A stretch of 64,000 nt of DNA, taken from positions 1 through 64,000 of the IMG/VR virus record IMGVR_UViG_3300047546_001263; one strand, given 5' to 3'. A program made the translations under genes and the position numbers. Below, in pieces: positions 783 to 17,856 of the stretch. The notes under the pieces were generated by a model. The model did not search any database, had not been told where the DNA came from, and saw only the letters and a list, made by a program, of their open reading frames with translations. Each line of letters starts with the position of its first letter. Positions within the stretch are counted from its first letter, which is position 1. The stretch comes from a virus.

Positions 783-1145
783 TTATGTCCAAAAAACCTG
801 CACACCTATAATAGCGCATGCAAGTAAAAGACATACGAATGTTTTTGTTGTAACCGGTTCATTAAATAGTGCATAACTCATTATATAAAAAACTATAATA
901 CCTATTCCAAACCCTATCAAACGGCTTGGCCATATCTCTCCATTAAAAGCAGCTACAAATTTTTCTACTGATTTAATGAACAGAATAGAAATAGGAATTG
1001 ATATTAATAAGACCCAAAATGGATATTTAGCATACCATCCCCACTTTATATTTCCTTGGAGCTGTAGGAACGTTATGATTTGAGCCAACGTTCCATACAA
1101 TGCTCCTTCTAGTAATAATTTATACATAATAATTTTAGTGCCCAT
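783..1145 (-). CDS. small 4-TM membrane protein (DMT/SMR-like size and topology)
   Basis: Four hydrophobic segments; LFNEPVT..K resembles DMT loop; real start may be a downstream Met. Confidence 0.5.
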   Translation of the reverse strand: MGTKIIMYKLLLEGALYGTLAQIITFLQLQGNIKWGWYAKYPFWVLLISIPISILFIKSVEKFVAAFNGEIWPSRLIGFGIGIIVFYIMSYALFNEPVTTKTFVCLLLACAIIGVQVFWT

Positions 1146-3984: not shown

Positions 3985-4248
3985 TTAATACTCTCCGTAA
4001 AGATCAAATTTCTCTGGTTCCGGAGGGGTAACTGTGATTTCCTGCTCACGGATTGCGTAAAGCTTTCCGGCAAGTGGATCTAATCTATATGCTCCTTTAA
4101 ACTTAGTCTTACGTAGGTAGGTTGTCAATGTTGGAACCAACCCTTCTATAACAACTCCTAAATCTATGTTCAGCTCCCAGTTATCACCAGGAGGAACACG
4201 GGTAGCAATATGCTCTGTAAATTCTTGTTTAATTACTTCTGTTGCCAT
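3985..4248 (-). CDS. hypothetical protein
   Basis: ORF coupled to queF stop. Confidence 0.6.
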   Translation of the reverse strand: MATEVIKQEFTEHIATRVPPGDNWELNIDLGVVIEGLVPTLTTYLRKTKFKGAYRLDPLAGKLYAIREQEITVTPPEPEKFDLYGEY

Positions 4249-5159
4249 TATTGACGTAACGTTTTAGCGATAGTATATTCTGGATCTGTAAAGAAATCTG
4301 GGATTAAGCTTTGGTGTGTAGCTCGAATAGGATTAATATCTAAACCTCCTCTACGGGTATACAAACAAGCCACCATTAACTGTTCTGGATTGTAAGCATC
4401 AGTTAAATGCTTGAATACCATTTCACAAATCTCTTCATGAAAGTGAGAAACAGTTCTATGGGAAACAATATACTTTGCTAACGATTCAGCAGAAGGTATG
4501 TTATTACCTATAATACGAATATAAACATCACCCCAATCTGGTTGATTTGTTACTCTACAGTTTGAACGTAGTAAATTAGATTTAACTTTCATATCTACAA
4601 GCTGGTCTGATACTCCTGCAACGTCTAACTGAGAAGCATCTGATTTAAAAGAAGTAAAGTCTACTTTATCTAAGTCAGCAGCTTCAGCTAAATCGGTATA
4701 GCCTACAAAAGTTAACGGATTAGCTTCGTCACTAGATGAATAAAAACTAACAGTAGTCTCTGTACTTAGCAATTCATCTAAATCTCTCTTTACTCTAGCT
4801 TCAATACCTGCAATACAATCTGCTGCAGTATCTCCGATACGAGTCATATTGAAAGAGTTTAAATATAACTTAATAGATTTAGATTCTACGTGAAATTCCG
4901 AAGATGCAGGACATACAATCTTTAACATACCTGCTACAGGCTGTCCTTTAGTTGTAATAGCTGAAACTTCATATGCATTCCAAGTATCTACTCCTACAAA
5001 TTCCTTGCCTGTCAACTCATACGCTTCACGGTTTAAGTAACGAGGGATTTTAACTAGTAACTCTGGATCGTAAGTATCTTTATAACCTTCACCACCGACT
5101 TTACCTAAATGCTTACCAGCAATGGCTACTACTGCTTCTTGATTTTTTTCGTTTGACAT
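4248..5159 (-). CDS. queF: NADPH-dependent preQ0 reductase QueF (bimodular)
   Basis: QueF motif VESKSIKLYLNSF; catalytic LLRSNCRVTNQPDWG; FHEE; YTRRGGLDINP. Confidence 0.95.
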   Translation of the reverse strand: MSNEKNQEAVVAIAGKHLGKVGGEGYKDTYDPELLVKIPRYLNREAYELTGKEFVGVDTWNAYEVSAITTKGQPVAGMLKIVCPASSEFHVESKSIKLYLNSFNMTRIGDTAADCIAGIEARVKRDLDELLSTETTVSFYSSSDEANPLTFVGYTDLAEAADLDKVDFTSFKSDASQLDVAGVSDQLVDMKVKSNLLRSNCRVTNQPDWGDVYIRIIGNNIPSAESLAKYIVSHRTVSHFHEEICEMVFKHLTDAYNPEQLMVACLYTRRGGLDINPIRATHQSLIPDFFTDPEYTIAKTLRQ

Positions 5160-5160
5160 A

Positions 5161-5679
5161 TTATTTTATAAAATTTAAAATTTGATCTACTCTTTGCATA
5201 GGTGAACCAGTTATAGTTAAGTAAGGTTGTCTAACTGTTTCTAATTCTGATTTAAAACGTTCATCTATCTTCTTTCTCCACTCTTCATTAACACTTCTCA
5301 CTCCATCATCTACTGATTCGAATTCAATAGGAAAATAAACATAATGTGTATATTCTCCTTTGATTCTATTCCAAGTATCTTGAATAAAGTCATGAGTACC
5401 TCTATCTATACCGTCCATGAAACAAGTATAAACTAAAACGTCCATATAACATCTATCTAAGACTAAGTTATAAGGTTTAAGTAAAGCTTCTAAGTGAAAA
5501 GAACTAATAGCTAACTGAGTAGCATCACTACCATACTCGTTGATAGGAAATCCATAACTTGCTACAGTTCGAGTAGATTCATTTATAAACTCATACTTAG
5601 GTAATTTATTCTTAAGAAGCTCATATACCGTAGTCTTACCTGTACTACTTGCTCCTACTAATGCTATTCTTTTTATCAT
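5161..5679 (-). CDS. P-loop nucleotide kinase-like protein (NadR/AAA_28 type)
   Basis: GASSTGKTT, LDRC..D, DDGVR motifs. Confidence 0.8.
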   Translation of the reverse strand: MIKRIALVGASSTGKTTVYELLKNKLPKYEFINESTRTVASYGFPINEYGSDATQLAISSFHLEALLKPYNLVLDRCYMDVLVYTCFMDGIDRGTHDFIQDTWNRIKGEYTHYVYFPIEFESVDDGVRSVNEEWRKKIDERFKSELETVRQPYLTITGSPMQRVDQILNFIK

Positions 5680-6242
5680 GACAAAACTACTTTTAAAAAC
5701 TTATACCACATATACAATGCCTTATCTCTTAATGTAAGATAAAAAGCTCGTTCATCCAACCCTTCTTGTAAAAATTCTTCATAATCTATAACTTCTCCTT
5801 CGTCAACTCCAGCAGTTACTTTATGTAAAACCGCTCCTGCTGTTACGTATTGCTTAAAAGATCTTTCTTGAGGATCTTTACCTTTTAATTCTGGATACTT
5901 TGTAATAAGCCCTGGGTGTCCGTTAAAGATTCTATATCTATCACAAATCTCAGGAGGCATTACTCTTAACCATCCGTGCAAGGTAACTACTAGTTTCTCA
6001 GGCGGAGCTAGATGATTAAATAGATACTCGTAATCCTGTAATGTAGGTTTATTCGGAGTTACATAGAAAAAAGGTAATTTTAGTATCCTCTCATCTACCT
6101 TACGTAAATGCTCTGGTCTTTCATTAGTCACAATTAAATTAGGCCATCTACCTAATTTCTCAGACAATGCTACTATCTCAGAACCTGTTTGAGAAAAGAA
6201 AGCTACCCACTGATTGCTAGTATTTGGTTGATCCGTTTGCAA
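5676..6242 (-). CDS. PurN-like formyltransferase, probable DpdN-type preQ1 formyltransferase
   Basis: FFSQTGS, NGHPG, AGAVLHKVTAGVDEGEVI formyltransferase motifs; sits between queF and DpdA-like gene. Confidence 0.8.
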   Translation of the reverse strand: MQTDQPNTSNQWVAFFSQTGSEIVALSEKLGRWPNLIVTNERPEHLRKVDERILKLPFFYVTPNKPTLQDYEYLFNHLAPPEKLVVTLHGWLRVMPPEICDRYRIFNGHPGLITKYPELKGKDPQERSFKQYVTAGAVLHKVTAGVDEGEVIDYEEFLQEGLDERAFYLTLRDKALYMWYKFLKVVLS

Positions 6243-7020
6243 ATTGTCTAAATCTTTGAATGTTAAATAATACCTTACTTACGTCTTCTACATTAGCATT
6301 AATCATCTCAAATAATTTTTGAGACTCTTTATCCCATAAACCTTCTTCTTTGTACTCAATGCCCTTAATACCATGAACTACCGGGTTAGACGTATCTAGT
6401 GAATAAATCCAGTCGTAATTTGCATGCTTATAGAATGCAAACTCTTGAGGTAATCCACATCCAAGTAAATGATGAGGTTTATCTACATTAATAACACCGT
6501 CTTTAAGTAGATCTCCAAGTAACTTCACACGTCCTAACATCCAGCTAACATACTTATTAGGATGTGGTACTGATTGTGTATAATACGAGTAGTCAAAAGA
6601 TATAGCTATCATATCTACGTTAGCTACCTTATCCATATGTTGATAACATTCAACTATCTGCTTATAGGTTCTTCCTTGAACTACCCCTATCTTTTTATTT
6701 TTAATTTCTGAATACTTACTATTCCACATATCCATAGAAGCCATAGTTTTAACACTATCTTCTAATACGTCTGGTACTATATACCAAGTAGGGTTTAGTT
6801 TCTTAATCCACCATGCAAATTCTTCTGAATCAAATGCATTTCCTAATTCAAAAATAGAATTATCTAGAATTACCTCTCTACCTTTCTCAATAGCATCATA
6901 AAATAAGTCATAGTACTCATAATCTTCTGCAAATAAATGCACTAAAGCATAATCGTAGTCTGTATACTGTTGAACAGTTTCAAAAATACTTTTTGGAGAT
7001 TCGTGAGCTATCTTAATCAT
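6217..7020 (-). CDS. dpdA: TGT-fold DpdA-like 7-deazaguanine transglycosylase (DpdA3-like)
   Basis: ILDNSIFE, VPDV, GVVQG, HHLLG, SLDTS motifs of the TGT/DpdA barrel; que gene context. Confidence 0.75.
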   Translation of the reverse strand: MIKIAHESPKSIFETVQQYTDYDYALVHLFAEDYEYYDLFYDAIEKGREVILDNSIFELGNAFDSEEFAWWIKKLNPTWYIVPDVLEDSVKTMASMDMWNSKYSEIKNKKIGVVQGRTYKQIVECYQHMDKVANVDMIAISFDYSYYTQSVPHPNKYVSWMLGRVKLLGDLLKDGVINVDKPHHLLGCGLPQEFAFYKHANYDWIYSLDTSNPVVHGIKGIEYKEEGLWDKESQKLFEMINANVEDVSKVLFNIQRFRQFANGSTKY

Positions 7021-7682: not shown

Positions 7683-7713
7683 TAATTTACGAAATTAATC
7701 AATAGGAAGCAAC
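7683..7713 (-). promoter_or_regulatory. class A promoter driving mazG-dpdA-formyltransferase-kinase-queF
   Basis: GTTGcttcctattgattaatTTCGTAAATTA. Confidence 0.7.
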
Positions 7714-7716
7714 TTA

Positions 7717-8427
7717 TTAGTTGCGACATTTTCCTGCTAATTCTATATTCTTATAGAACTCAGCTCTACAAGAATCTTCTTTTAAGAATGCTCCTGAAAG
7801 TTTAGCTGTCTGCATTGATGCTCCATTATGTTTAGTACCTCGGCAAGATACACAATTATGTGTTGCATCTACCATTACAGCTACTCCTTCGTTACCTTCG
7901 CAGATCTTATCAATAGCATGATGAATAGCTACTGTTAATTGCTCTTGGATAGCTCCTCGACGACCGAAGTATTCTACAATACGGTTTAGTTTAGATAATC
8001 CAATAACCTTACCGTCTTTTCCTGGGATGTAAGCAACACTAACTCGACCTTGAATAGTCTGGTGATGGTGAGAACACATAGAGGTTAGTGGTATATTACT
8101 CTCCTGTACTAACCCGTCATAACCGTCTGATGGAAATGCTGTAATTTCTGGTGGTGCTGAGAATCGACCTGCCCATAAGTCGTTTACATATGCTTTTGCT
8201 ACTCGACGTGGAGTGTCGGATGAGTTTGGATCATTTCTCCAATCACACCCCAAAGCATCTAAGAACTTACCGAATGCTTCTGCAGCGTTTGAGATAATTT
8301 CATATTTCTCAGAGTCGGTAAGATGAACATCTACCATTTTACTAATTTTTTGCTTCTCAGCTAACTGTGTGGATAAACCATTTGCGTAACCTGCTTCGGT
8401 TACCTCTAACGAATACTTCTTCTTCAT
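7717..8427 (-). CDS. folE: GTP cyclohydrolase I
   Basis: DTPRRVAK, SMCSHH, GLSKLNR, IQEQLT, HNCVSCRG. Confidence 0.96.
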   Translation of the reverse strand: MKKKYSLEVTEAGYANGLSTQLAEKQKISKMVDVHLTDSEKYEIISNAAEAFGKFLDALGCDWRNDPNSSDTPRRVAKAYVNDLWAGRFSAPPEITAFPSDGYDGLVQESNIPLTSMCSHHHQTIQGRVSVAYIPGKDGKVIGLSKLNRIVEYFGRRGAIQEQLTVAIHHAIDKICEGNEGVAVMVDATHNCVSCRGTKHNGASMQTAKLSGAFLKEDSCRAEFYKNIELAGKCRN

Positions 8428-8434
8428 TTTATAT

Positions 8435-8464
8435 GTTTGTTTTTAAAGTGGTGCTACGACACTA
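8435..8464 (-). ncRNA. preQ1-I riboswitch-like aptamer in folE leader
   Basis: UAGUG-UCGUAGCAC-CACU-UUAAAAACAAAC between promoter and AUG; second copy at 11759. Confidence 0.7.
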
Positions 8465-8472
8465 CTATAACT

Positions 8473-8502
8473 TAATTTACGAAAACTTAATTTAAGATCC
8501 AA
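8473..8502 (-). promoter_or_regulatory. class A promoter of folE
   Basis: TTGgatcttaaattaagttTTCGTAAATTA. Confidence 0.7.
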
Positions 8503-8503
8503 A

Positions 8504-8926
8504 TTATTTCAAGTAATCTTGAATAGAATCACTATCTTTATTTTCCCAAGGAAATACTAACCACCTAGCATCATCGATTAGTTCGCAATACTTATCCGGA
8601 ACGTACTTACTATTATGTCTAAATGCTAATGCTAAGGTTAAAAATTCATAAGCATCAATTTCTGCAAAAGTAATTCCTGTATCACAAATATCGTCTACAA
8701 CTAGGGTTTTATGTCTTAACCTAGTAGGTAGTAATTTAGCTTCTGCTAAACTTATAAACTTTATTTTATATCTATGAGAAATTAAAACTGCAGGGATTAA
8801 ACCTCCTCTTGGTAAACCGGTAACATACATTACGGGTTCTTGACAATCTAACCACATTCCAATTTTATCAATTTGACTCTCTACCCACTCCCAGGTAAGG
8901 TCTCTCGTGATTATAATTTCTCTCAT
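8504..8926 (-). CDS. type I phosphoribosyltransferase (Gpt/xanthine-guanine PRT-like)
   Basis: GLPRGGLIPA, LVVDDICDTGIT, WLVFPWE. Confidence 0.9.
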   Translation of the reverse strand: MREIIITRDLTWEWVESQIDKIGMWLDCQEPVMYVTGLPRGGLIPAVLISHRYKIKFISLAEAKLLPTRLRHKTLVVDDICDTGITFAEIDAYEFLTLALAFRHNSKYVPDKYCELIDDARWLVFPWENKDSDSIQDYLK

Positions 8927-9351
8927 TAATCCTTTATATCATTCTTACCGTTTGTATAATGCCATAAACTTCCAGAAGGATAACCATATGTAGTCGTGGT
9001 TGTCATACCGCTTAAACCTAAAGGACTGTTTATTGTAGTAATAGATCCTACACCTGGTGTAGTTGTTATAACTCCGGTTCCTCCACCTGTACCATTTGGT
9101 AAAAAAGGGTTATTAATACCGGGTACATCTCCTACATAGTAAGGATTAATTTTATGAGGCTCTTGCCATCTTGGGTACGGTTCATGTACTCTAAATGTAT
9201 TAGGATCTGAAAGTATACCTCCTAATGGGAATGAATCATCTACCTCTTTTAACTTATCTTTTAATGCATCCCATTGTTTTGGAGTTGGTGCGTACTCATG
9301 GCAAGCTTCTACAAAACCTTGCATCCATGTAACAAATTCTTTTGATGTCAT
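8926..9351 (-). CDS. hypothetical protein
   Basis: N-terminal FVTWMQGFVE..TPKQW segment plus low-complexity tail. Confidence 0.6.
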   Translation of the reverse strand: MTSKEFVTWMQGFVEACHEYAPTPKQWDALKDKLKEVDDSFPLGGILSDPNTFRVHEPYPRWQEPHKINPYYVGDVPGINNPFLPNGTGGGTGVITTTPGVGSITTINSPLGLSGMTTTTTYGYPSGSLWHYTNGKNDIKD

Positions 9352-9356
9352 AACTT

Positions 9357-9956
9357 TTAATTACAATTTATTTTATATTCTTGCCATTTTTTAGTAGGCG
9401 GTTGATTCGGAAAATAGTAACATTCGGTTTTACCGCTCTTAGTAAACTTAATCACTTTATAAAATGCATCAGGTACTGTAGCATTTGTAGGTAGTTTAAT
9501 AGACTTATCGCTAAAAATAGCTTTGACTGTTACTTCTAGTACTTCTGTATCTGCCCATACTCTCTCTTGTGCTTCTAATAGTCGCCACTCACCCCTATTT
9601 AATCTTTCGTTCTGTAAAGCAGAATTTAAGTAAGTAAAAGTCTGTTTTAAGTTCTCTTTGGAGTCGGTAAAATGTGCAGCTGGAGCCATATGTCCTTTAT
9701 CGTATATGTTTGCTGCGTAGTCATTATTATCAGATGTATGATAGTCTTTCTCTGTGTAAAAATCTAACCCTTTTCTATCTGCTACTTTTGTTATAGGTCT
9801 TGCAGTGTATTTAACCCAGAGAGGCTGTTCCTTAGTCTCTGAATACATTACTTCAAATATCGGAGTTTTAACTAATACTGAATCTCGTAATTGCCCGTAA
9901 GCAGTTGTTAATGTTAGTAAAAATGCTAAAAGAAGCAAATTCGATTTTCTTCCCAT
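9357..9956 (-). CDS. secreted DNA/RNA non-specific endonuclease (NucA/EndoG family)
   Basis: Signal peptide; YDKGHMAPA, TFTYLN..Q...LNRGEW..LE, VPDAFYK. Confidence 0.9.
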   Translation of the reverse strand: MGRKSNLLLLAFLLTLTTAYGQLRDSVLVKTPIFEVMYSETKEQPLWVKYTARPITKVADRKGLDFYTEKDYHTSDNNDYAANIYDKGHMAPAAHFTDSKENLKQTFTYLNSALQNERLNRGEWRLLEAQERVWADTEVLEVTVKAIFSDKSIKLPTNATVPDAFYKVIKFTKSGKTECYYFPNQPPTKKWQEYKINCN

Positions 9957-10216
9957 CTGTAATTGTTTAACTGTTTATAATCGGTTTCTGATAAAATTGT
10001 AACATTTTGAGTATCTACAGGATGTTCGTCTATGTAGTTAATTAACTCTAGGAAAGTTACAGGACCAAATTCTATTTCGTCGTAATCTTCTGTTATTAAG
10101 TGAAGGTTACCGTTCTGTACTTTGTAATCCCATACAATCAAACCATCTACTAGTATTTCAACATCTCCCATGTTGTCTATACCTACTTCGTATCTTAATA
10201 TATCTTCTAAATTCAT
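9926..10216 (-). CDS. hypothetical acidic protein (start reassigned to 10216)
   Basis: ATG directly downstream of TATTTATA at 10223-10230; track start overlaps queE. Confidence 0.55.
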   Translation of the reverse strand: MNLEDILRYEVGIDNMGDVEILVDGLIVWDYKVQNGNLHLITEDYDEIEFGPVTFLELINYIDEHPVDTQNVTILSETDYKQLNNYRWEENRICFF

Positions 10217-10235
10217 AGTAAATATAAATAGAGGT

Positions 10236-11018
10236 TTACACAGCTCTTTTAGTGTCGAAAGCAATAATATGCTCTCTACCTGTAAATCGGTATGCATTTT
10301 GAGTACACCATTCTATAACTAAAGGATAAACTCTAATTAACTCTTGACGATTATCTCCTGGAGGCATTATAATTACCTTATTTTTAGGTATCTCTAACTC
10401 ATCCAACCAAGCTCTTGTCTCTAACCATTCTTCAGGTCTCTCTACTGGATTAGCTACGATTTTAACGTGGTAATCTTTATGGTATGCCAATGTCTCTTTA
10501 ATTGCTTCTTTATTGAGACGATGCCTGTTGTGCGTGTCAATAAGCTTCTGGTCTGTAACTGCACCTTGAGGAGTAAGTACGCCCAATACAGGCACACTAT
10601 TGGTAAACTTAGGACTAAGACTAATAAGGTCAATAGGATAGTCGGTAGCGAGGAAATGGCTTCCTTCAGTTTCGATGGTAATAATGATACCTCTTTCATG
10701 AGCAAAATGTGTTAATTCGTTAACTAAAGCTGGATGCATTGTTGGTGAACCCCCTGTTAACATCATCTCCTTCACTTCTGGGTTCTCATCGTATATCTTA
10801 ACGATATCGTTGAAATTATAAATACCTTTTTCTGGATGTATACTGGTATACCAAGAGTCGCACCATCCGCCTTCTCCAAAGTAACAACGGTGAGTACAAC
10901 CTGTAGTTCTAATTGCTACAGTTGGATAGCCAGCTCTTGAACCTTCTGATTGTACGCAAGTGTACAATTCTACGATAGGTAACTTTTTACTATAATCTGT
11001 AATTCTTCCTAAACTCAT
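10236..11018 (-). CDS. queE: 7-carboxy-7-deazaguanine synthase QueE (radical SAM)
   Basis: VQSEG, RTTGCTHRC..(insert)..WCDS, LTGGSP, IETEG, SLSPK. Confidence 0.92.
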   Translation of the reverse strand: MSLGRITDYSKKLPIVELYTCVQSEGSRAGYPTVAIRTTGCTHRCYFGEGGWCDSWYTSIHPEKGIYNFNDIVKIYDENPEVKEMMLTGGSPTMHPALVNELTHFAHERGIIITIETEGSHFLATDYPIDLISLSPKFTNSVPVLGVLTPQGAVTDQKLIDTHNRHRLNKEAIKETLAYHKDYHVKIVANPVERPEEWLETRAWLDELEIPKNKVIIMPPGDNRQELIRVYPLVIEWCTQNAYRFTGREHIIAFDTKRAV

Positions 11019-11029
11019 TATTTTTTATT

Positions 11030-11491
11030 TTATGCTTGATAAGATGCAGAATTTCTTTCGTGTTCGTAAACTTCTACTTTTACAGCTTTTACTCGTCCTT
11101 CGGTTTCTGCTTCTAAGAACTCATTAATTTCGTTATACAGATACTCTGCAAATCTTTCACAACCGGTTGCAGGTAAAATACGTAACTGAATAATACCGTC
11201 TTCATCCATCTGTTTAAAGTTCTCTAAATATGGATCATCCTCTGCTACTATTGTAGTATGGTCTAATAAGTAGTTAAAGAAGTCTTTAGGTGAACTACCG
11301 TACATAGTAGTCTTTGCTCTCTTCATTCCTCCAAAGTCCCATACCCAGTTACGTTCGTCTAGTTCTCCTTCGAACCATACTCTAAAAGATACTGCGTATC
11401 CGTGAAGAAACTTACAGTGAGTTCCTTCTGCTTTCCATTGACGAAAACAGGTAGAGTATCCGTCAAATAATTTTGTTGATTGAAATTTCAT
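11030..11491 (-). CDS. queD: 6-carboxytetrahydropterin synthase QueD
   Basis: HCKFLHGY, VWDFG, LDH, VYEHERNSA. Confidence 0.93.
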   Translation of the reverse strand: MKFQSTKLFDGYSTCFRQWKAEGTHCKFLHGYAVSFRVWFEGELDERNWVWDFGGMKRAKTTMYGSSPKDFFNYLLDHTTIVAEDDPYLENFKQMDEDGIIQLRILPATGCERFAEYLYNEINEFLEAETEGRVKAVKVEVYEHERNSASYQA

Positions 11492-11501
11492 ATTGTGTAA
11501 T

Positions 11502-11756
11502 TTAAACTAATTCTTCGTAAATTCCAACTAGTTCGGAAATAATTAACAATACAGCTGCAGTCTCTATTGAAAAGAATAGAGCTATATAACCTGCAATCCT
11601 GATACCGGATTTAAGGAAACTTACTAGTTGGTGTTTTTTTGGATCGGGAAGTTTTTGACCTTTTATTACTAAATCGTCATAAAAAGTTACTGCAGGTTTT
11701 ACTTTTTTACCTTTCAGATTTCGAGATGCGTGTACTACATCATGCGGGTTTGTCAT
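11502..11756 (-). CDS. small membrane protein, first gene of queD-queE unit
   Basis: C-terminal hydrophobic hairpin; directly follows riboswitch-like leader. Confidence 0.6.
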   Translation of the reverse strand: MTNPHDVVHASRNLKGKKVKPAVTFYDDLVIKGQKLPDPKKHQLVSFLKSGIRIAGYIALFFSIETAAVLLIISELVGIYEELV

Positions 11757-11758
11757 GG

Positions 11759-11788
11759 GTGTGTTTTTAAAGTGGTGCTACGACACTA
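11759..11788 (-). ncRNA. preQ1-I riboswitch-like aptamer leading the orf-queD-queE unit
   Basis: UAGUG-UCGUAGCAC-CACU-UUAAAAACACAC, 29/30 identical to folE copy, 2 nt before AUG. Confidence 0.7.
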
Positions 11789-11799
11789 TTGTCTAAAAC

Positions 11800-11830
11800 T
11801 AATGTACGAATAATTATCTTACGAAACAAC
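11800..11830 (-). promoter_or_regulatory. class A promoter of queD/queE unit
   Basis: GTTGtttcgtaagataattaTTCGTACATTA. Confidence 0.7.
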
Positions 11831-11835
11831 TTTTA

Positions 11836-11952
11836 CTAAAAATTCTTATAAATAAAAGGGTCTCTTTTTTTTAATTCTTCTATTTTCTTCTTAAACTCTC
11901 TTTTCCTTTTCCAGTTTTTGAAAAGATTCTTTATAGTATCTAAAAATTTCAT
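11836..11952 (-). CDS. 38-aa basic peptide coupled to carbamoyltransferase
   Basis: Not in track; ATGA overlap; MKFLDTIKNLFKNWKRKREFKKKIEELKKRDPFIYKNF. Confidence 0.6.
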   Translation of the reverse strand: MKFLDTIKNLFKNWKRKREFKKKIEELKKRDPFIYKNF

Positions 11953-13628
11953 TTGTGTTTCATTTTAATAATGAGGTAGTTATCTATTACAAGAAAATCC
12001 ATCTTACTATCCAAAAATCTCTCTACTGCTTGCTTTGGTGTTATAGTAATTGTCTGATCCTTAAAATTAAAAGATGTATTTAAACATATAGGATAACCTG
12101 ATATACGTTTCAATGCTAAAAGCAATTGATAATACCTTGGGTTTTGTTCTTTAGTAACTGTTTGAACTCTTGCTGTATTATCAATATGGGTAATAGAAGG
12201 TAGTCTATGGTTCTTCTTAACTTCTACAACTTGATTCATATAAGGTACCGGTTCTTTTATATCGAAAAACATTTTAGCGTCTTCTTCTATACATGAAGGA
12301 GCGAAAGGTCTAAAGCTTTCCCTCTTTTTAATGACTTTGTTGATTTTATCTTTTATACCTGGATGAAGAGGTGAAGCAAGTATAGATCTATTACCTAAAG
12401 CTCTTGCTCCAAATTCCATATTACCTTGGAACCATCCTACTATATTCCCGCTATGAATTATAGATGCTACCTTATTCAGAAGTCTCTCTTCTGTAGGATA
12501 TCTAAAGTAGTATATCTTGTTACCAAAGTACTCTAATTGAGTACGTATACTTACTTCATTAAAAGAAGGACCTGTGTAAGGAACGCTATTATCCTTTCTA
12601 GGACCTTTATAAGATGCTAAGCATGCACCAATAGCAGAACCTGCATCTGAAGGTGCAAATGGTATATGTATAGATGTATAATGTTTATATGCTTTTGTGT
12701 TAGCTAATCCATTATACGCACATCCACCTCCTAAACAGAGATTATCAGAATTAACTAATTCTTTAGCTTTCTCTAGAATTCTATTAAACTGCTTTTCGTA
12801 AATAAACTGTACAGCGGCGGCTAAATCATAATCATCTTGTGTAATTTCATCTTCCGGAAGGCGAGGACCTCTACCTAATACATTACATAGATCAGAAGTA
12901 AACATTATCTTATCTGAATACTCCCAAGTAAAGTATTCTGGGTAAAATGAAAAAATTGATTCTTTTTCGAATTTAAAAAGCTTATGAAGGAATGGAACAT
13001 ACTTATTAGAATCTCCATATCCAGCCATACCCATAACTTTATATTCACCTTCGTTAGGTTTAAAGCCGAGGAATGCGGTAAAGGTAGAGTAGAATAATCC
13101 TAAAGATTCTGGGAAGTTAATAGCAAATACTTTTTCTATAGAATTGTCTTTTGCTTTTGAAATTGTAACTGTTTCAAACTCTCCAACTCCGTCTATAGTT
13201 ACAATTGCCGCTTCTTTGTAAGGGCTAGTAAAATAGGAAAATGCTGCGTGAGATAAATGGTGTTCAACATACCTAATAGGGCCTTGGTATAGGAAATGTT
13301 TTGCTAATAAAAAGTTAGGATTGTGAAGTTCTTTTCTCTCTTTAAGAAATTTTAATCTTTTAAAGAATGTACGAAAAGGATATTTGTTGAAAGATTTAAG
13401 TACTCTTGCTCTCTTTAATTCTGGAATCTCATACCAGCAAACTTCGTCAATATCGTTTATTGTAAGTTTACTTGCTCTTAAAACCCATTTGATCGCATCT
13501 ATTGGAAAACTATCGTCATGTTTGATACCTGATAGCTTTTCTTGTTCTATGGCATAAAGAACCTTACCGTCTTTAACGATGCATGCTGCAGAGTCGTGGT
13601 AAAATGCTGAAATGCCTAGTTGTATCAT
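11949..13628 (-). CDS. O-carbamoyltransferase (NodU/CmcH family)
   Basis: YHDSAAC, EHHLSHAA, DGVGE, EYKVMGMAGYG, EFGARALGNRS, RESFRPFAP, LNTSFN. Confidence 0.95.
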   Translation of the reverse strand: MIQLGISAFYHDSAACIVKDGKVLYAIEQEKLSGIKHDDSFPIDAIKWVLRASKLTINDIDEVCWYEIPELKRARVLKSFNKYPFRTFFKRLKFLKERKELHNPNFLLAKHFLYQGPIRYVEHHLSHAAFSYFTSPYKEAAIVTIDGVGEFETVTISKAKDNSIEKVFAINFPESLGLFYSTFTAFLGFKPNEGEYKVMGMAGYGDSNKYVPFLHKLFKFEKESIFSFYPEYFTWEYSDKIMFTSDLCNVLGRGPRLPEDEITQDDYDLAAAVQFIYEKQFNRILEKAKELVNSDNLCLGGGCAYNGLANTKAYKHYTSIHIPFAPSDAGSAIGACLASYKGPRKDNSVPYTGPSFNEVSIRTQLEYFGNKIYYFRYPTEERLLNKVASIIHSGNIVGWFQGNMEFGARALGNRSILASPLHPGIKDKINKVIKKRESFRPFAPSCIEEDAKMFFDIKEPVPYMNQVVEVKKNHRLPSITHIDNTARVQTVTKEQNPRYYQLLLALKRISGYPICLNTSFNFKDQTITITPKQAVERFLDSKMDFLVIDNYLIIKMKHK

Positions 13629-13665: not shown

Positions 13666-13739
13666 TGGACCAACCTGGGCTCGAACCAGGGACCTACTGA
13701 TTATGAGTCAGGTGCTCTAACCAACTGAGCTATAAGTCC
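13666..13739 (-). tRNA. tRNA-CAT, Ile2 (lysidine)-type or elongator Met
   Basis: GGACTTATAGCTCAGTTGGTTAGAGC..CTCATAA..GGTTCGAG..GGTCCA cloverleaf. Confidence 0.88.
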
Positions 13740-14029: not shown

Positions 14030-14890
14030 AGTAAGCCTGAGACTACAGCTCTAACGCTAGATCTTTTGAGGTATTATCTTAATTCCCCTCTTGTCCAGAG
14101 ACTTTTGATCTCTATTCTAGCAATGCTGGTTATTTAGGTGAACCACTCCTTGAGCTACTTATTATTTGGACTACTCTCTCCCTACTCGTCTCTATTCAAA
14201 TCTGCCGACCTGATTAACCCTTGCGAGGCTATAGAACTTTCTAGAGAATCACTCTTGACTTGCGATCTTAAGTGGCACTGAACAGCTCAGTACTATGTAA
14301 GCATCTTTCGTCCGTAGCTGGCAAGCGCTTTTGCTTTTATGATTATGTATTTTTGAAAATGCAATAATTCAAAAGTTAGCGACTTGTGGATTGTAAAGGT
14401 AGCGGCCTGCCCTAAGCTCTCTTAACTTTTGATCAAGAGAATACTTAACTACCTTTTGAAGTGTCCCCACCTCCATACTTTAAGATATCTTCATAACTAA
14501 CATCTTGGTAGATGCTTGCTAAGGTAGATAACAGCACCACCTGTACACCTACTTGCCTTTCAGCTTTAAGATACCTCTTATATTGAGCAACGCAATAATA
14601 TACTTGGATAAGTATACTTCTTGCAAATACCCTACAGGTTAATCTTATTACTCTTCCGAGCTCAACTAAACGACCCACATCGCCTAGTCACTAAACCACT
14701 TTCCCTAAAGTGTTACCCTCAGTACTTAAGGTTTAATGATACCCTGCTTGCATACTTAAGCTCTTGCGAGCCGCAAACTACTTCAGTCAAAGTAGCTCAC
14801 TTTACACCAGTTTCCTGGTTTATTTACCGACTATATGCCGCCGAATGTTATTTATGATTTAGCCGAAGCTTCATCAATGGATAACAATGT
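14030..14890 (-). ncRNA. large structured ncRNA, GOLLD-like (~860 nt; ends approximate)
   Basis: No credible ORF; many GNRA-capped hairpins; own promoter and boxA-like site; upstream of tRNAs. Confidence 0.65.
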
Positions 14891-16015: not shown

Positions 16016-16088
16016 TTGCGAGAGAGGGAATCGAACCCCCGACCTCCAGGTTATGAGCCTGGCGAGCTACCGCTGCTACTATCTCGCG
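16016..16088 (-). tRNA. initiator tRNA-fMet(CAT)
   Basis: C1:A72 mismatch; CCAGG-CTCATAA-CCTGG. Confidence 0.9.
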
Positions 16089-16096
16089 ATATAATG

Positions 16097-16169
16097 TACT
16101 CCGTAGGGGTTTCGAACCCCTAATCTCCTCCGTGAAAGGGAGGCGACTTAACCGTTTGTCCAACGGAGC
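16097..16169 (-). tRNA. tRNA-Glu(TTC)
   Basis: CCTCC-CTTTCAC-GGAGG anticodon arm, full cloverleaf. Confidence 0.92.
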
Positions 16170-16176
16170 GGAATTG

Positions 16177-16559
16177 TGGAGATGGAGGGAGTCGAACCCT
16201 CGTCCAAATACGGATTTAATAAACCTCATTCACAAGCTTAGTTAATTTTTCTAAATTAACAAAATATAAAGTTTGATATATGTGGGAACCAAACTTTCAA
16301 ACAACCTGGTCTCGAAATTATTTAATAGAGCTCCGACCTGTTACTCCAACTCTCACTTCTTTTTAAATTCCCATGAGTGATACGGGAAAGATTAGGCAGC
16401 TACTGCGTAATCAGCACCTACGAAAGCCATAGCGTCTTCGAAAGTGAAAGAAGATAATTCTTCTGCGTTTATTGTTTGATAGGTGTTTAAGGATTTCCAT
16501 CTAATCCTGCTTGCATCAATTGTACCAACTCATCGTACCTGTCAAAACCGGGCATCCCC
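16177..16559 (-). ncRNA. ssrA: tmRNA
   Basis: 5' GGGGATG..TTTGAC; 3' GGTTCGACTCCCTCCATCTCCA with G3:U70; tag ORF 16392-16466 AEELSSFTFEDAMAFVGADYAVAA*. Confidence 0.93.
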
Positions 16560-16564
16560 AATTG

Positions 16565-16636
16565 AGCTTCCTCGAGGAATCGAACCCCGTTATCCTGAGT
16601 ACAAATCAGGCGCATCACCATTTATGCTTAGGAAGC
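16565..16636 (-). tRNA. tRNA-Thr(TGT)
   Basis: CCTGA-TTTGTAC-TCAGG; acceptor GCTTCCT/AGGAAGC; atypical A8 and C38. Confidence 0.85.
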
Positions 16637-17016: not shown

Positions 17017-17856
17017 TTACTTGATATGTTCTGCTAAAACTTTTTCTACATGGGATTTAGCTACTTCCCATTCAACTGGTCCTGTCTCGTCTTCGTATTG
17101 AACAGGATCTTTACGGCCCAACTTAATAAAAGCTTCAATACGCTCCACAGAGCTAGCAGACTTATAGTCGCTATTACCAGAAGGGTAAGGCTTATATGAA
17201 GTGTTAGTTCTCTTGTACACCTCATCAAAGTCCAAACCGAGTGTTTCACATGCTTTAAGTCCATCTTCTAGAATACCAAATTTATCTGTATCTAAATAGG
17301 GAGTATAAAACTTAACACGTTCTGCATCCCAGTTACCAATTCTAAATGCTTCCATATCTGCATCTCTAAACTCTTGACGACAGTCAGGGTAGATTGCATG
17401 ATCTCCAGCATGGATACCTAGAGAAATAAAGGTATCTTCTTTTGTTTCGTTTGCTACTGATAAAGCTACTGCTTGTACTAGTGAGCTAAAGATCTTATTA
17501 CGATTAGGCACAACAGTATCTTTCATGTTGTCTTGTTCGTAATGACCTTCCGGCACATCTTTACCTCCTTCAACTAATGCTGAATTTAGTAGTTCTTTTA
17601 AACCGTCCAACTTAATAATCTGATGTGTTGGTGGTAAGAAAGAGTAATTTTTATCGTTATCAAACGGTGGATGCATAGCATTCCATTGCTCATTAATATA
17701 CTCTACTAATGATGTTGCACGTTCTAACTCTACTCTATGTTTCTGACCGTAATCAAAAGATAAAGTAGTAACTCTGTAGCCATTTGCTAACAAATGTAGT
17801 AACAAGGTAGAGGAGTCCATCCCTCCAGATAAGGACAATACAGCATTCTTCGCCAT
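17017..17856 (-). CDS. queC: 7-cyano-7-deazaguanine synthase QueC (Zn-cysteine-less variant)
   Basis: SGGMDS, FDYGQKH, VPNRN, YPDCR. Confidence 0.93.
   Translation of the reverse strand: MAKNAVLSLSGGMDSSTLLLHLLANGYRVTTLSFDYGQKHRVELERATSLVEYINEQWNAMHPPFDNDKNYSFLPPTHQIIKLDGLKELLNSALVEGGKDVPEGHYEQDNMKDTVVPNRNKIFSSLVQAVALSVANETKEDTFISLGIHAGDHAIYPDCRQEFRDADMEAFRIGNWDAERVKFYTPYLDTDKFGILEDGLKACETLGLDFDEVYKRTNTSYKPYPSGNSDYKSASSVERIEAFIKLGRKDPVQYEDETGPVEWEVAKSHVEKVLAEHIK

Follow-up and report, generated by a model that had tools for sequence, protein, structure and literature searches.

The leaders of folE and of the orf84-queD-queE unit of a freshwater Flavobacterium-type phage carry two copies of a short element which, judged by its conservation in related sequences, is maintained as an RNA-level structure, and which we consider quite likely to be a compact, type II-like preQ1-I translational OFF switch. 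Because the element matches the preQ1 ligand pocket, metabolite-sensing control is probable, i.e., the phage probably throttles its 7-deazaguanine pathway by means of a metabolite-sensing RNA. The initial annotation had described a 30-nt element present twice, with 29 of 30 positions identical, lying 7 and 2 nt before the start codons of folE and of an orf-queD-queE unit, and both the element and the gene calls held when the sequence was checked. Both copies are on the minus strand, here the coding strand. Copy 1 (8464..8435) is followed by AUAUAAA and the folE AUG at 8427, and copy 2 (11788..11759) by CC and the AUG of orf84-queD-queE at 11756, the only difference between them being A versus C at the third position from the end. 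In the window (the whole analysed stretch of 64,000 nt), a search for the 27-nt core with up to three mismatches returned these two copies only (expected number 0, from 100 shuffles), as did a search with up to six mismatches across the whole 101,260-bp record. The "pocket descriptor", a sequence-free pattern in which a G-C-closed stem of 4 bp carries a 9-nt loop U....G.AC and precedes an A-tract with a C behind it, matched exactly copies 1 and 2, with 0.005 matches per shuffled genome.

The candidate aptamer of copy 1, in the folE leader (8436..8463, minus strand; 53.3 bits with model R1), consists of the P1 strands AGUG (5', 8463..8460) and CACU (3', 8450..8447), the loop UCGUAGCAC (8459..8451), an A-rich L3 of UUAAAAA (8446..8440), the tail C at 8439 and a proposed partner of loop U9 at 8436. 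In the candidate aptamer of copy 2, in the orf84-queD-queE leader (11760..11787, minus strand; 50.7 bits with R1), the P1 strands are at 11787..11784 (5') and 11774..11771 (3'), the loop at 11783..11775, L3 at 11770..11764, the tail C at 11763 and the U9 partner at 11760. At 8 to 11 nt upstream of each 30-nt copy there is a promoter-like motif, TTCGTAnATTA (8483..8473 and 11810..11800): TTCGTAAATTA (8473..8483, minus strand) lies 9 nt 5' of the P1 of copy 1, or 8 nt from the 30-nt element, and TTCGTACATTA (11800..11810, minus strand) lies 12 nt 5' of the P1 of copy 2, or 11 nt from the element. What was annotated as a class A promoter is a genuine repeated motif 5' of both copies, found at about 12 coding-strand sites, about ten of which precede other same-strand genes, all without the hairpin; its function as a promoter is presumed.

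All pathway genes of the phage given here are on the minus strand. Directly behind copy 1 lies folE (GTP cyclohydrolase I; 7717..8427; PF01227, 9.2e-44), and downstream of folE and mazG follows dpdA, without an aptamer of its own, encoding the DNA guanine transglycosylase DpdA (6217..7020; 73% identity to DpdA of phage immuto). Directly behind copy 2 lies orf84 (11502..11756), encoding a small protein with a C-terminal hydrophobic helix; its position before queD is conserved in relatives, a search of Pfam and PHROG gave no family, and its homologues are hypothetical phage proteins only. It is followed by genes of a queD-like 6-carboxytetrahydropterin synthase of the PTPS fold (11030..11491; PF01242, 1.7e-15) and a queE-like radical SAM enzyme, 7-carboxy-7-deazaguanine synthase (10236..11018), annotated as QueE in the immuto relative. 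A two-domain nitrile reductase gene, queF (preQ0 to preQ1; 4248..5159), and a match to queC (preQ0 synthase; 17122..17844; PF06508, 1.6e-38) have no aptamer. A formyltransferase-like protein (5676..6242; PF00551) may have a DpdN-like role, by analogy with the work of Cui et al. 2023, and the end product of the phage is probably a preQ1 derivative in DNA. In four RNA-library studies of freshwater, contigs were present for parts of folE, queD and queE, one of them spanning copy 1 (7823-8522), although such contigs cannot reveal transcript start, strand or level, and DNA carry-over is possible.

Among 80 IMG/VR loci picked by FolE similarity alone, the element precedes folE in 61, with a second copy further upstream in 38, and each copy sampled there heads either folE-mazG-dpdA or orf84-queD-queE. 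Nineteen of the 80 loci do not have the element, and the 7-deazaguanine-making Cellulophaga phage phiST (Cui et al. 2023) has none before folE, queD or queE; the element is therefore dispensable. Phage immuto, in whose DNA formyl-preQ1 replaces G (Cui et al. 2023), carries it before folE and has none before its queD block. A 26-bit match of model R1 in the phiST locus was rejected as spurious. In an IMG/VR pattern scan that constrained just one of the four P1 pairs, 92 matches were obtained; all full-stem intergenic matches precede folE or queD-queE blocks, and the stemless ones are within long ORFs. Occurrence before unrelated genes, which was named at the outset as a possible refutation, was not seen, the element being confined to folE and queD-queE leaders.

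The check for covariation across the folE and queD leaders of related phages, as first suggested, gave a clear result for P1. Pair 1 (n = 78) is AU in 48, GC in 11, CG in 10 and UA in 9 sequences, pair 2 (n = 78) is GC in 68 and CG in 10, pair 3 is UA in 65 and AU in 13, and GC closes the stem in all 77 and all 78 sequences of two alignments. Between 99.4 and 100% of the P1 cells are paired and three of the four pairs are changed on both sides, where the main alignments were collected with P1 pairing required and the pattern scan is unbiased for only three of the four pairs. When the partners are shifted by one to three columns, pairing is lost. The loop UCGUAG(A/C)AC and the tail AAAAACA stay constant while the 4-bp P1 varies by compensatory substitutions.

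Every position that contacts preQ1 in the solved class I aptamers is conserved in the element. P1 closes with G-C, U is the first loop base, the specificity cytosine stands in its "AC" context, the A-tract keeps its final A, and the bases of the G-C ceiling pair, of C7-G11-C30 type, are present (for recognition positions and roles, see PMC11625349). In alignment A3, C15, T7 and A26 (the specificity C, the L1 U and the L3 A beside the tail C) are invariant columns; in class I aptamers, O6 of the floor G binds the 7-aminomethyl group of preQ1 (PMC11625349). The initial annotation was right that the UCGYAG loop, the specificity C and the A-rich tail are kept, and these pocket positions match PMC11625349. 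As in type II aptamers (PMC11625349), the specificity C is preceded by A, A14 and C15 being invariant, and the loop begins with UC in 74 of 76 unique elements and with UU in two. The type I signature, which binds two ligands, consists of "UC" before the P1 3' strand, a UU motif and a C-interrupted A-tail; here, the last two loop bases are AC, and most copies have an unbroken A-tract. The type III features (UU motif, pyrimidine-rich loop, AAGG in P2) are absent as well, since the loop reads UCGUAGMAC and AAGG does not occur in the tail. The location is that of a preQ1-I leader, before folE and orf84-queD-queE in phages and before queC/D/E in 19 bacterial genomes.

The pseudoknot helix P2 is suggested by one invariant pair and one pair with limited covariation. 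Loop G and tail C are both invariant, so that their pair is uninformative for P2. The best partner of loop position 9 is the base 3 nt past the tail C, which is the register of C9-G33 in Thermoanaerobacter tengcongensis (Tte). This pairing is present in 61 of 78 sequences, whereas shuffles average 54.5 and 1 of 2000 is as high; the signal includes 17 U-G pairs and may reflect few independent events. Sequences with a non-U position 9 pair at +3 in 10 of 10 cases and no other column pairs well; five position-9 A variants show no pairing at +3. Of the proposal that a U-A pair replaces C9-G33, the register stands, as the sole covariation signal in the tail, but its support for P2 is weak. The RNA of a copy alone folds weakly (-2.4 kcal/mol; z-score not significant) and its minimum-energy fold is a competing hairpin, GUGU/GCAC; as the pseudoknot would be ligand-dependent, thermodynamic folding is uninformative.

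It had been predicted that standard models would miss the element, and they did, also at relaxed threshold. The Rfam model RF00522 (PreQ1; gathering cut-off 39 bits) matched neither copy when the window was searched at gathering, gave no PreQ1 match at E<=10 in 3.5 kb and 61 nt around copy 1, and in a search of the phage's own genome returned four other weak sites only. In 13 Thalassospira genomes, queC-queD-queE is preceded by the same loop and tail on a CCUG/CAGG stem, and in 6 Vibrio or Marinomonas genomes the CCUG/CAGG-stem core lies before queD(-queE), so that it is que-linked in 19/19 in all. Since this core is also present at the head of que operons of marine Proteobacteria, this type of aptamer is not found in phages only. 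The proteobacterial aptamers share the identical loop UCGUAGCAC, the 4-bp P1 and the 7-nt L3, and the Thalassospira and Marinomonas copies the tail CACGAA, with the Vibrio tails diverging after a common CA. They differ in the G+C-rich stem, in an additional hairpin between aptamer and AUG in Vibrio and Marinomonas, and in being chromosomal and serving tRNA queuosine synthesis. RF00522 gave no match at five proteobacterial loci (E<=1) or in the Thalassospira leader (gathering and E<=10), and its best matches in five proteobacterial genomes are sites other than que leaders. In four Bacteroidota genomes, model R1 found none among the 150 candidates scored out of thousands, and a pattern search across 401 Flavobacteriaceae genomes yielded 35 matches against about 27 in a reversed control, which is chance level.

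Among the closest counterparts are the type II preQ1-I aptamers of Tte and Bacillus subtilis (Bsu) queC (sequences in PMC10639078; features in PMC11625349). Shared with them are the proposed H-type pseudoknot plan, the closing G-C floor, "AC" before the P1 3' strand, an A-rich L3, the putative tail C/loop G pair and a candidate position-9 partner three bases on, and with Tte also the loop start UCG.AG (UCGCAG in Tte); Tte is under translational control, with P2 extending into the initiation region. In contrast, the phage P1 has 4 bp instead of 5, the loop 9 nt (Tte 10, Bsu 12) and L3 7 nt (Tte 9, Bsu 8), and the phage element hides no Shine-Dalgarno sequence, is not scored by RF00522, is borne by a phage and is linked to DNA rather than tRNA modification. 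The Escherichia coli type III aptamer (PDB 8fza; PMC10622847), which binds preQ1 at about 52 nM and was called the smallest natural aptamer, is similarly compact and gives the phage geometry a precedent among solved structures: a 9-nt loop follows from its floor pair G5-C15, L1 consists of one U and L2 of 3 nt, and the whole aptamer has about 30 nt. However, its UU motif, pyrimidine-rich loop, A-U ceiling and buried AAGG Shine-Dalgarno set it apart from the phage element, where the motif is UC, the loop contains purines, the ceiling is G-C and there is no Shine-Dalgarno. In one of 61 sampled genomes of Flavobacteriaceae, the likely host family, a canonical preQ1-I riboswitch with the type I signature precedes a YhhQ/Vut_1 transporter gene; it also has an A-rich tail near the AUG and no clear Shine-Dalgarno, but since it differs in P1 (6 bp), loop (12 nt, UU start, UC end) and RF00522 score (50 bits), the phage aptamer is not its copy. 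Streptococcus phage Dp-1 reportedly carries a preQ1 riboswitch; its first 16 kb (que cluster) showed no riboswitch annotation and no Rfam match at gathering, and Dp-1 is therefore not counted as a precedent here. Other metabolite-sensing RNAs borne by phages are c-di-GMP-I in Clostridioides difficile prophages and glutamine riboswitches in cyanophages (McCown et al. 2017, PMC5473149), which belong to other classes with other ligands, none of them on a DNA-modification pathway.

We propose that each copy would act as a preQ1 class I aptamer of about 28 nt, folding as an H-type pseudoknot at or near the mRNA 5' end. The trigger would be build-up of a free 7-deazaguanine base from the phage pathway, most likely preQ1, with preQ0 probably binding too. 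The ligand would be sandwiched between the closing G-C of P1 as floor and the loop-G:tail-C pair as ceiling. Three bases would read it, namely the cytosine before the P1 3' strand, the U that opens the loop and the final A of the A-tract. Upon binding, the A-rich tail would be locked in the P1 groove and P2 would form, reaching to within 3 nt of the AUG in copy 2 and 8 nt in copy 1, which on these A-rich leaders without Shine-Dalgarno sequences would exclude the 30S subunit. The outcome would be less translation of folE and orf84-queD-queE, which together account for the first three steps, from GTP to 7-carboxy-7-deazaguanine.

A short, weak stem with a strictly conserved loop is also typical of protein-bound hairpins, and together with the thin evidence for P2 and the missing Rfam match this would suit an RNA operator, where a phage or host protein binds the hairpin and A-rich tail and represses or times translation without sensing a small molecule. 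We regard this as unlikely, since the conserved positions correspond one for one to the preQ1 pocket of solved class I aptamers and the same core is present at que operons of Proteobacteria with no obvious phage protein in common. Furthermore, there is no co-occurring candidate protein (orf84 encodes a small membrane protein), and immuto has the folE copy yet none before the queD block. A riboswitch of the same fold for another base (preQ0 only, 7-carboxy-7-deazaguanine, 7-deazaguanine, the formyl-preQ1 base or guanine) would agree with the probable end product, with an L2 of 3 nt, shorter than in type II aptamers, and with the altered-ligand variants known in other classes (PMC11625349). It is nevertheless improbable, as all ligand-reading positions, floor G included, are of preQ1 type, the identical core is found at ordinary bacterial tRNA-queuosine operons, and phiST, the phage making 7-deazaguanine, is without the element. 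An inverted repeat serving as operator or promoter part in DNA would fit the position just downstream of the promoter-like motif, but is hardly credible, because stem bases vary with complementarity kept, so that base identity is not what is read, conservation is strand-asymmetric with loop and tail on one side only, all copies are on the coding strand, about ten sites of the same promoter motif lack the element, and the U-G pairs in the candidate P2 are possible in RNA only.

Beyond the preQ1-I OFF switch itself, it is conceivable, and we put this forward tentatively, that the element represents an unmodelled "mini" class I preQ1 subtype (4-bp P1, 9-nt loop, about 28 nt, smaller than the 30-nt E. 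coli type III construct of PMC10622847), common to Flavobacteriia phages and marine Proteobacteria, which in phages would gate DNA hypermodification by occluding the A-rich standby region of leaders without Shine-Dalgarno sequences. Such a subtype may be tuned to preQ0 or another phage intermediate. Phage riboswitches are reported to be rare (PMC5473149), and Cui et al. 2023, who described the 7-deazaguanine chemistry of the closest cultured phage, do not mention regulation. In the literature searched, no paper was found that ties a riboswitch to a phage DNA-modification pathway, in agreement with what was stated in the initial annotation. The RF00522 model has a blind spot, the same aptamer being missed in que operons of Thalassospira, Vibrio and Marinomonas. 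For ligand-controlled expression in Bacteroidota the element offers a compact candidate part, and it is a marker for phages with 7-deazaguanine DNA. If preQ1 or preQ0 is bound, a class I aptamer can work with a 4-bp P1, a translation switch is possible in a lineage largely without Shine-Dalgarno pairing, and the phage would meter a costly, GTP-consuming pathway that replaces all G through a cis-acting sensor of about 28 nt.

Both copies of the 30-nt element lie on the minus strand, which is the coding strand for all genes in this region, and a single base separates them. Copy 1 (8464..8435) is followed after 7 nt by the AUG of a 236-aa ORF assigned by Pfam to GTP cyclohydrolase I (folE), and copy 2 (11788..11759) is followed after 2 nt by the AUG of an 84-aa ORF (orf84). 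The two ORFs after orf84 encode a PTPS/QueD-type protein and then a radical SAM protein (Pfam), the counterpart of the latter being annotated as QueE in immuto, the closest cultured phage relative. The two near-identical elements that the initial annotation placed before folE and the orf-queD-queE unit were recovered at the same coordinates and with the same AUG spacing. No third copy of the 27-nt core occurs in the window at up to 3 mismatches (0 expected), or in the whole 101,260-bp record at up to 6. A pocket descriptor consisting of a 4-bp stem with a closing G-C pair, a 9-nt loop U....G.AC, and an A-tract then C, with the stem sequence otherwise free, matches exactly copies 1 and 2, while shuffled genomes give 0.005 matches each.

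The element was compared with the published preQ1-I aptamers of Thermoanaerobacter tengcongensis (Tte) and the Bacillus subtilis queC leader (Bsu) (PMC10639078), and with the class I rules of a 2024 review (PMC11625349). In class I, the cytosine directly before the P1 3' strand pairs with the ligand, the other edge of which is read by L1 U6 and the last L3 adenine; the floor is the P1 closing G-C pair, where G O6 binds the aminomethyl group, and the ceiling in Tte is the C7-G11-C30 triple (PMC11625349). Each class I pocket position coincides with an invariant column of the alignment, and the claim that the loop start, the specificity C and the A-rich tail are retained holds. The three types are told apart by 'AC' before the P1 3' strand (type II), by 'UC' plus 'UU' (type I), and by 'UU' plus 'AC' together with a pyrimidine-rich loop and a buried AAGG (type III) (PMC11625349). 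The phage element shares the type II signature and opens its loop much as Tte does (UCGUAG against UCGCAG), and it is smaller than the Tte and Bsu aptamers, with a P1 of 4 bp against 5, a loop of 9 nt against 10 or 12, and an L3 of 7 nt against 9 or 8. A solved precedent for such dimensions is the E. coli type III aptamer (floor pair G5-C15, single-nucleotide L1, 3-nt L2), which, as a 30-mer lacking one P1 pair, has an affinity for preQ1 of about 52 nM (PMC10622847). As had been anticipated for standard models, the Rfam PreQ1 model (RF00522), searched at relaxed threshold, reports neither copy at any threshold allowed, and the element therefore does not qualify as an Rfam member.

Among 80 IMG/VR loci retrieved solely by FolE similarity (69-96%), the element was found within 90 nt upstream of folE in 61, a second copy 2-3 kb farther upstream in 38, and both copies in 34; local BLAST of the downstream ORFs showed that every sampled copy heads either folE-mazG-...-dpdA or orf84-queD-queE. 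A FolE-independent scan of IMG/VR, with fixed positions in the loop and in a portion of the tail and with three P1 pairs out of four left unconstrained, gave 92 matches. Those that are intergenic and have a complete stem all precede folE or the queD block, and none lies upstream of an unrelated gene, a placement named at the outset as contrary to the proposal. Three of these intergenic matches are truncated by a locus end, but begin with FolE-like or orf84-like residues, and about 26 stemless matches inside long ORFs were dismissed as chance. Phage immuto carries GGAG-UCGUAGAAC-CUCC-AUAAAAACA 16 nt ahead of folE; the element was not found in Cellulophaga phage phiST.

Across the 77 unique phage elements, 99.4% of P1 cells are paired, and three pairs vary on both sides. 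In an alignment of 78 phage and bacterial copies, each with an L3 of 7 nt, the first pair is AU in 48, GC in 11, CG in 10 and UA in 9, the second GC in 68 and CG in 10, the third UA in 65 and AU in 13, and the closing pair GC in all 78. Covariation, suggested earlier as a check across the folE and queD leaders of related phages, is thus present as compensatory change in P1 pairs 1-3, and shifting the 3' partners by 1-3 columns lowers pairing to 28-62%. Both alignments were gathered under a pairing requirement, so the IMG/VR scan with three free P1 pairs is the fairer evidence for this stem. Invariant columns comprise the closing G-C, loop U1, C2, A5 and G6, the loop-final AC, the A-tract and the tail CA; L3 measures 7 nt in 61/76 unique elements (range 5-9).

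For the proposed pseudoknot helix P2, the loop G and tail C are both invariant and that candidate pair is uninformative. The best partner of loop position 9 is the base three positions past the tail C, with which it pairs in 61/78 sequences; shuffling gives 54.5 on average, and 1/2000 shuffles is equally high. Pairing at that column extends to each of the ten sequences whose position 9 is C or G (C-G in 8, G-C in 1, G-U in 1), and 0-4 of the same ten pair at any other tail column. The eight C-G cases belong to a variant of the queD copy, recovered by the covariance model, in which the loop reads UCACAG. This UCACAG(C/U)AC loop, found in queD leaders at L065:1360-1396, L071:2215-2251, L027:1695-1731, L076:2120-2156, L046:1048-1084, L045:1235-1271 and L041:2073-2109 (retrieved phage loci), is always accompanied by a CACG tail, giving a C-G pair in the register of Tte C9-G33. 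Since these cases may represent few independent events, and position 9 is an A left unpaired at this column in five variants, the alignment is only suggestive of P2; of the initial claim that U-A replaces Tte C9-G33, the register carries a pairing signal, while the A9 variants do not follow it. The isolated RNA has a weak predicted fold. A competing 4-bp hairpin, GUGU/GCAC around CGUA (8451-8462 and 11775-11786, minus strand), is the predicted minimum-energy fold of the CAC-loop versions; it would sequester the ceiling G, and is not kept in the GAG/AAC variants.

When the IMG/VR pattern was re-run over one genome per prokaryote species, most matches were chance, and in 19 the same loop and tail accompany a CCUG/CAGG stem (13 Thalassospira genomes and 6 Vibrio or Marinomonas genomes), with que genes downstream in 19/19. 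In Thalassospira queC-queD-queE begins about 25 nt past the tail, as in the queC leader L210 (CCUG-UCGUAGCAC-CAGG-UUAAAAACA, 1032-1060, plus strand), and in Vibrio and Marinomonas queD(-queE) follows, with an extra hairpin between; like sites are in L219, L241, L245, L256, L263, L285, L308 and other loci. RF00522 gave no match at E<=1 on five bacterial loci, and on L210 none at gathering and none when 53 nt were searched at E<=10. Because the same core stands before que genes in 19 bacterial genomes, the aptamer type is not phage-only, and these copies are independent support for a core that would sense a queuosine precursor. We consider it probable that the element is a compact type II-like preQ1-I variant, missed by Rfam and used twice by this Flavobacterium-type phage to gate entry to 7-deazaguanine DNA modification; the main rival, an operator bound by a protein, seems improbable to us. 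In the likely host family no copies above chance were found in 401 genomes, and 1/61 sampled Flavobacteriaceae genomes has a canonical type I preQ1-I aptamer before a Vut_1/YhhQ transporter (L368:1500-1545, minus strand, loop UUCGCAAUUCUC, 50 bits), with an AUG close behind its A-rich tail and without a clear Shine-Dalgarno sequence. Its type I signature and 6-bp P1 rule out the phage element as a copy of it.

The record encodes a complete pathway leading from GTP to a DNA-borne preQ1 derivative, with folE, queD, queE, queC and a two-domain queF among the genes, and a formyltransferase-like protein gene adjoins dpdA. Immuto has the same gene set and all its dG is replaced by formyl-dPreQ1 (Cui et al. 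2023); the words riboswitch and regulation are absent from the text of that paper. The best DNA matches of the record are Flavobacterium and Cellulophaga phages, and the sequencing runs containing the stretch are freshwater metagenomes. The orf84 product (11502-11756, minus strand) combines a basic N-terminus with a hydrophobic helix at the C-terminus, is without a known family, and has counterparts of 51-88 aa preceding queD in relatives. The queD-queE block runs on into an Endonuclease_NS non-specific endonuclease and a small phosphoribosyltransferase-like protein (8504-8926 and 9357-9956, minus strand), the latter a pathway neighbour in immuto too. Immediately upstream of the putative queD-leader promoter lies a 559-aa carbamoyltransferase (Carbam_trans_N and Carbam_trans_C; 11949-13628, minus strand). 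Near its gene, just upstream of a tRNA, is a full-length GOLLD RNA match (14034-14456, minus strand; RF02032, 271.5 bits, model positions 1-416), and a complete tmRNA (16174-16559, minus strand; RF00023, 116 bits) is flanked by tRNA genes; the tRNAs are at 13666-13739, 16016-16088, 16097-16169 and 16565-16636, all on the minus strand.

The promoter proposed before each copy corresponds to a repeated promoter-like TTCGTAnATTA, 8-11 nt upstream of both (minus-strand starts 8483 and 11810). It also precedes about 10 further coding-strand genes, including mazG directly behind folE (among the starts 248, 3949, 7693, 14925, 47782, 54067 and 60896, minus strand, and 76157 in G000); since the hairpin was found at none of these other sites, it is separate from the motif. 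The motif starting at 7693 ends just 5 nt ahead of the mazG AUG, a spacing which suggests that some phage mRNAs have very short leaders or none. In the folE and orf84-queD-queE mRNAs the hairpin would be located at the 5' end or close to it.

A search of the full-text literature turned up no account of a preQ1 riboswitch carried by a phage or controlling a DNA-modification pathway, in agreement with the novelty claimed; riboswitches are rarely found in phages, with c-di-GMP-I and glutamine as examples (McCown et al. 2017, PMC5473149). The observation made in the initial annotation is confirmed and its interpretation is supported. The interval from aptamer to AUG has no room for a terminator, the proposed P2 stops 3 nt short of the start codon in copy 2 and 8 nt short of it in copy 1, and both leaders are A-rich and without a Shine-Dalgarno sequence. 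A translational OFF switch is the most economical reading, in which binding of the ligand, presumably preQ1 with preQ0 likely binding as well, would fold the A-tail onto P1 and close P2, and the single-stranded landing region of the 30S subunit would be lost. No copy of the element stands at queC, queF, dpdA or the formyltransferase-like gene, and the switch would govern only the first three enzymes of the pathway, which may serve to curb the drain on GTP when the base pool outstrips insertion by DpdA.
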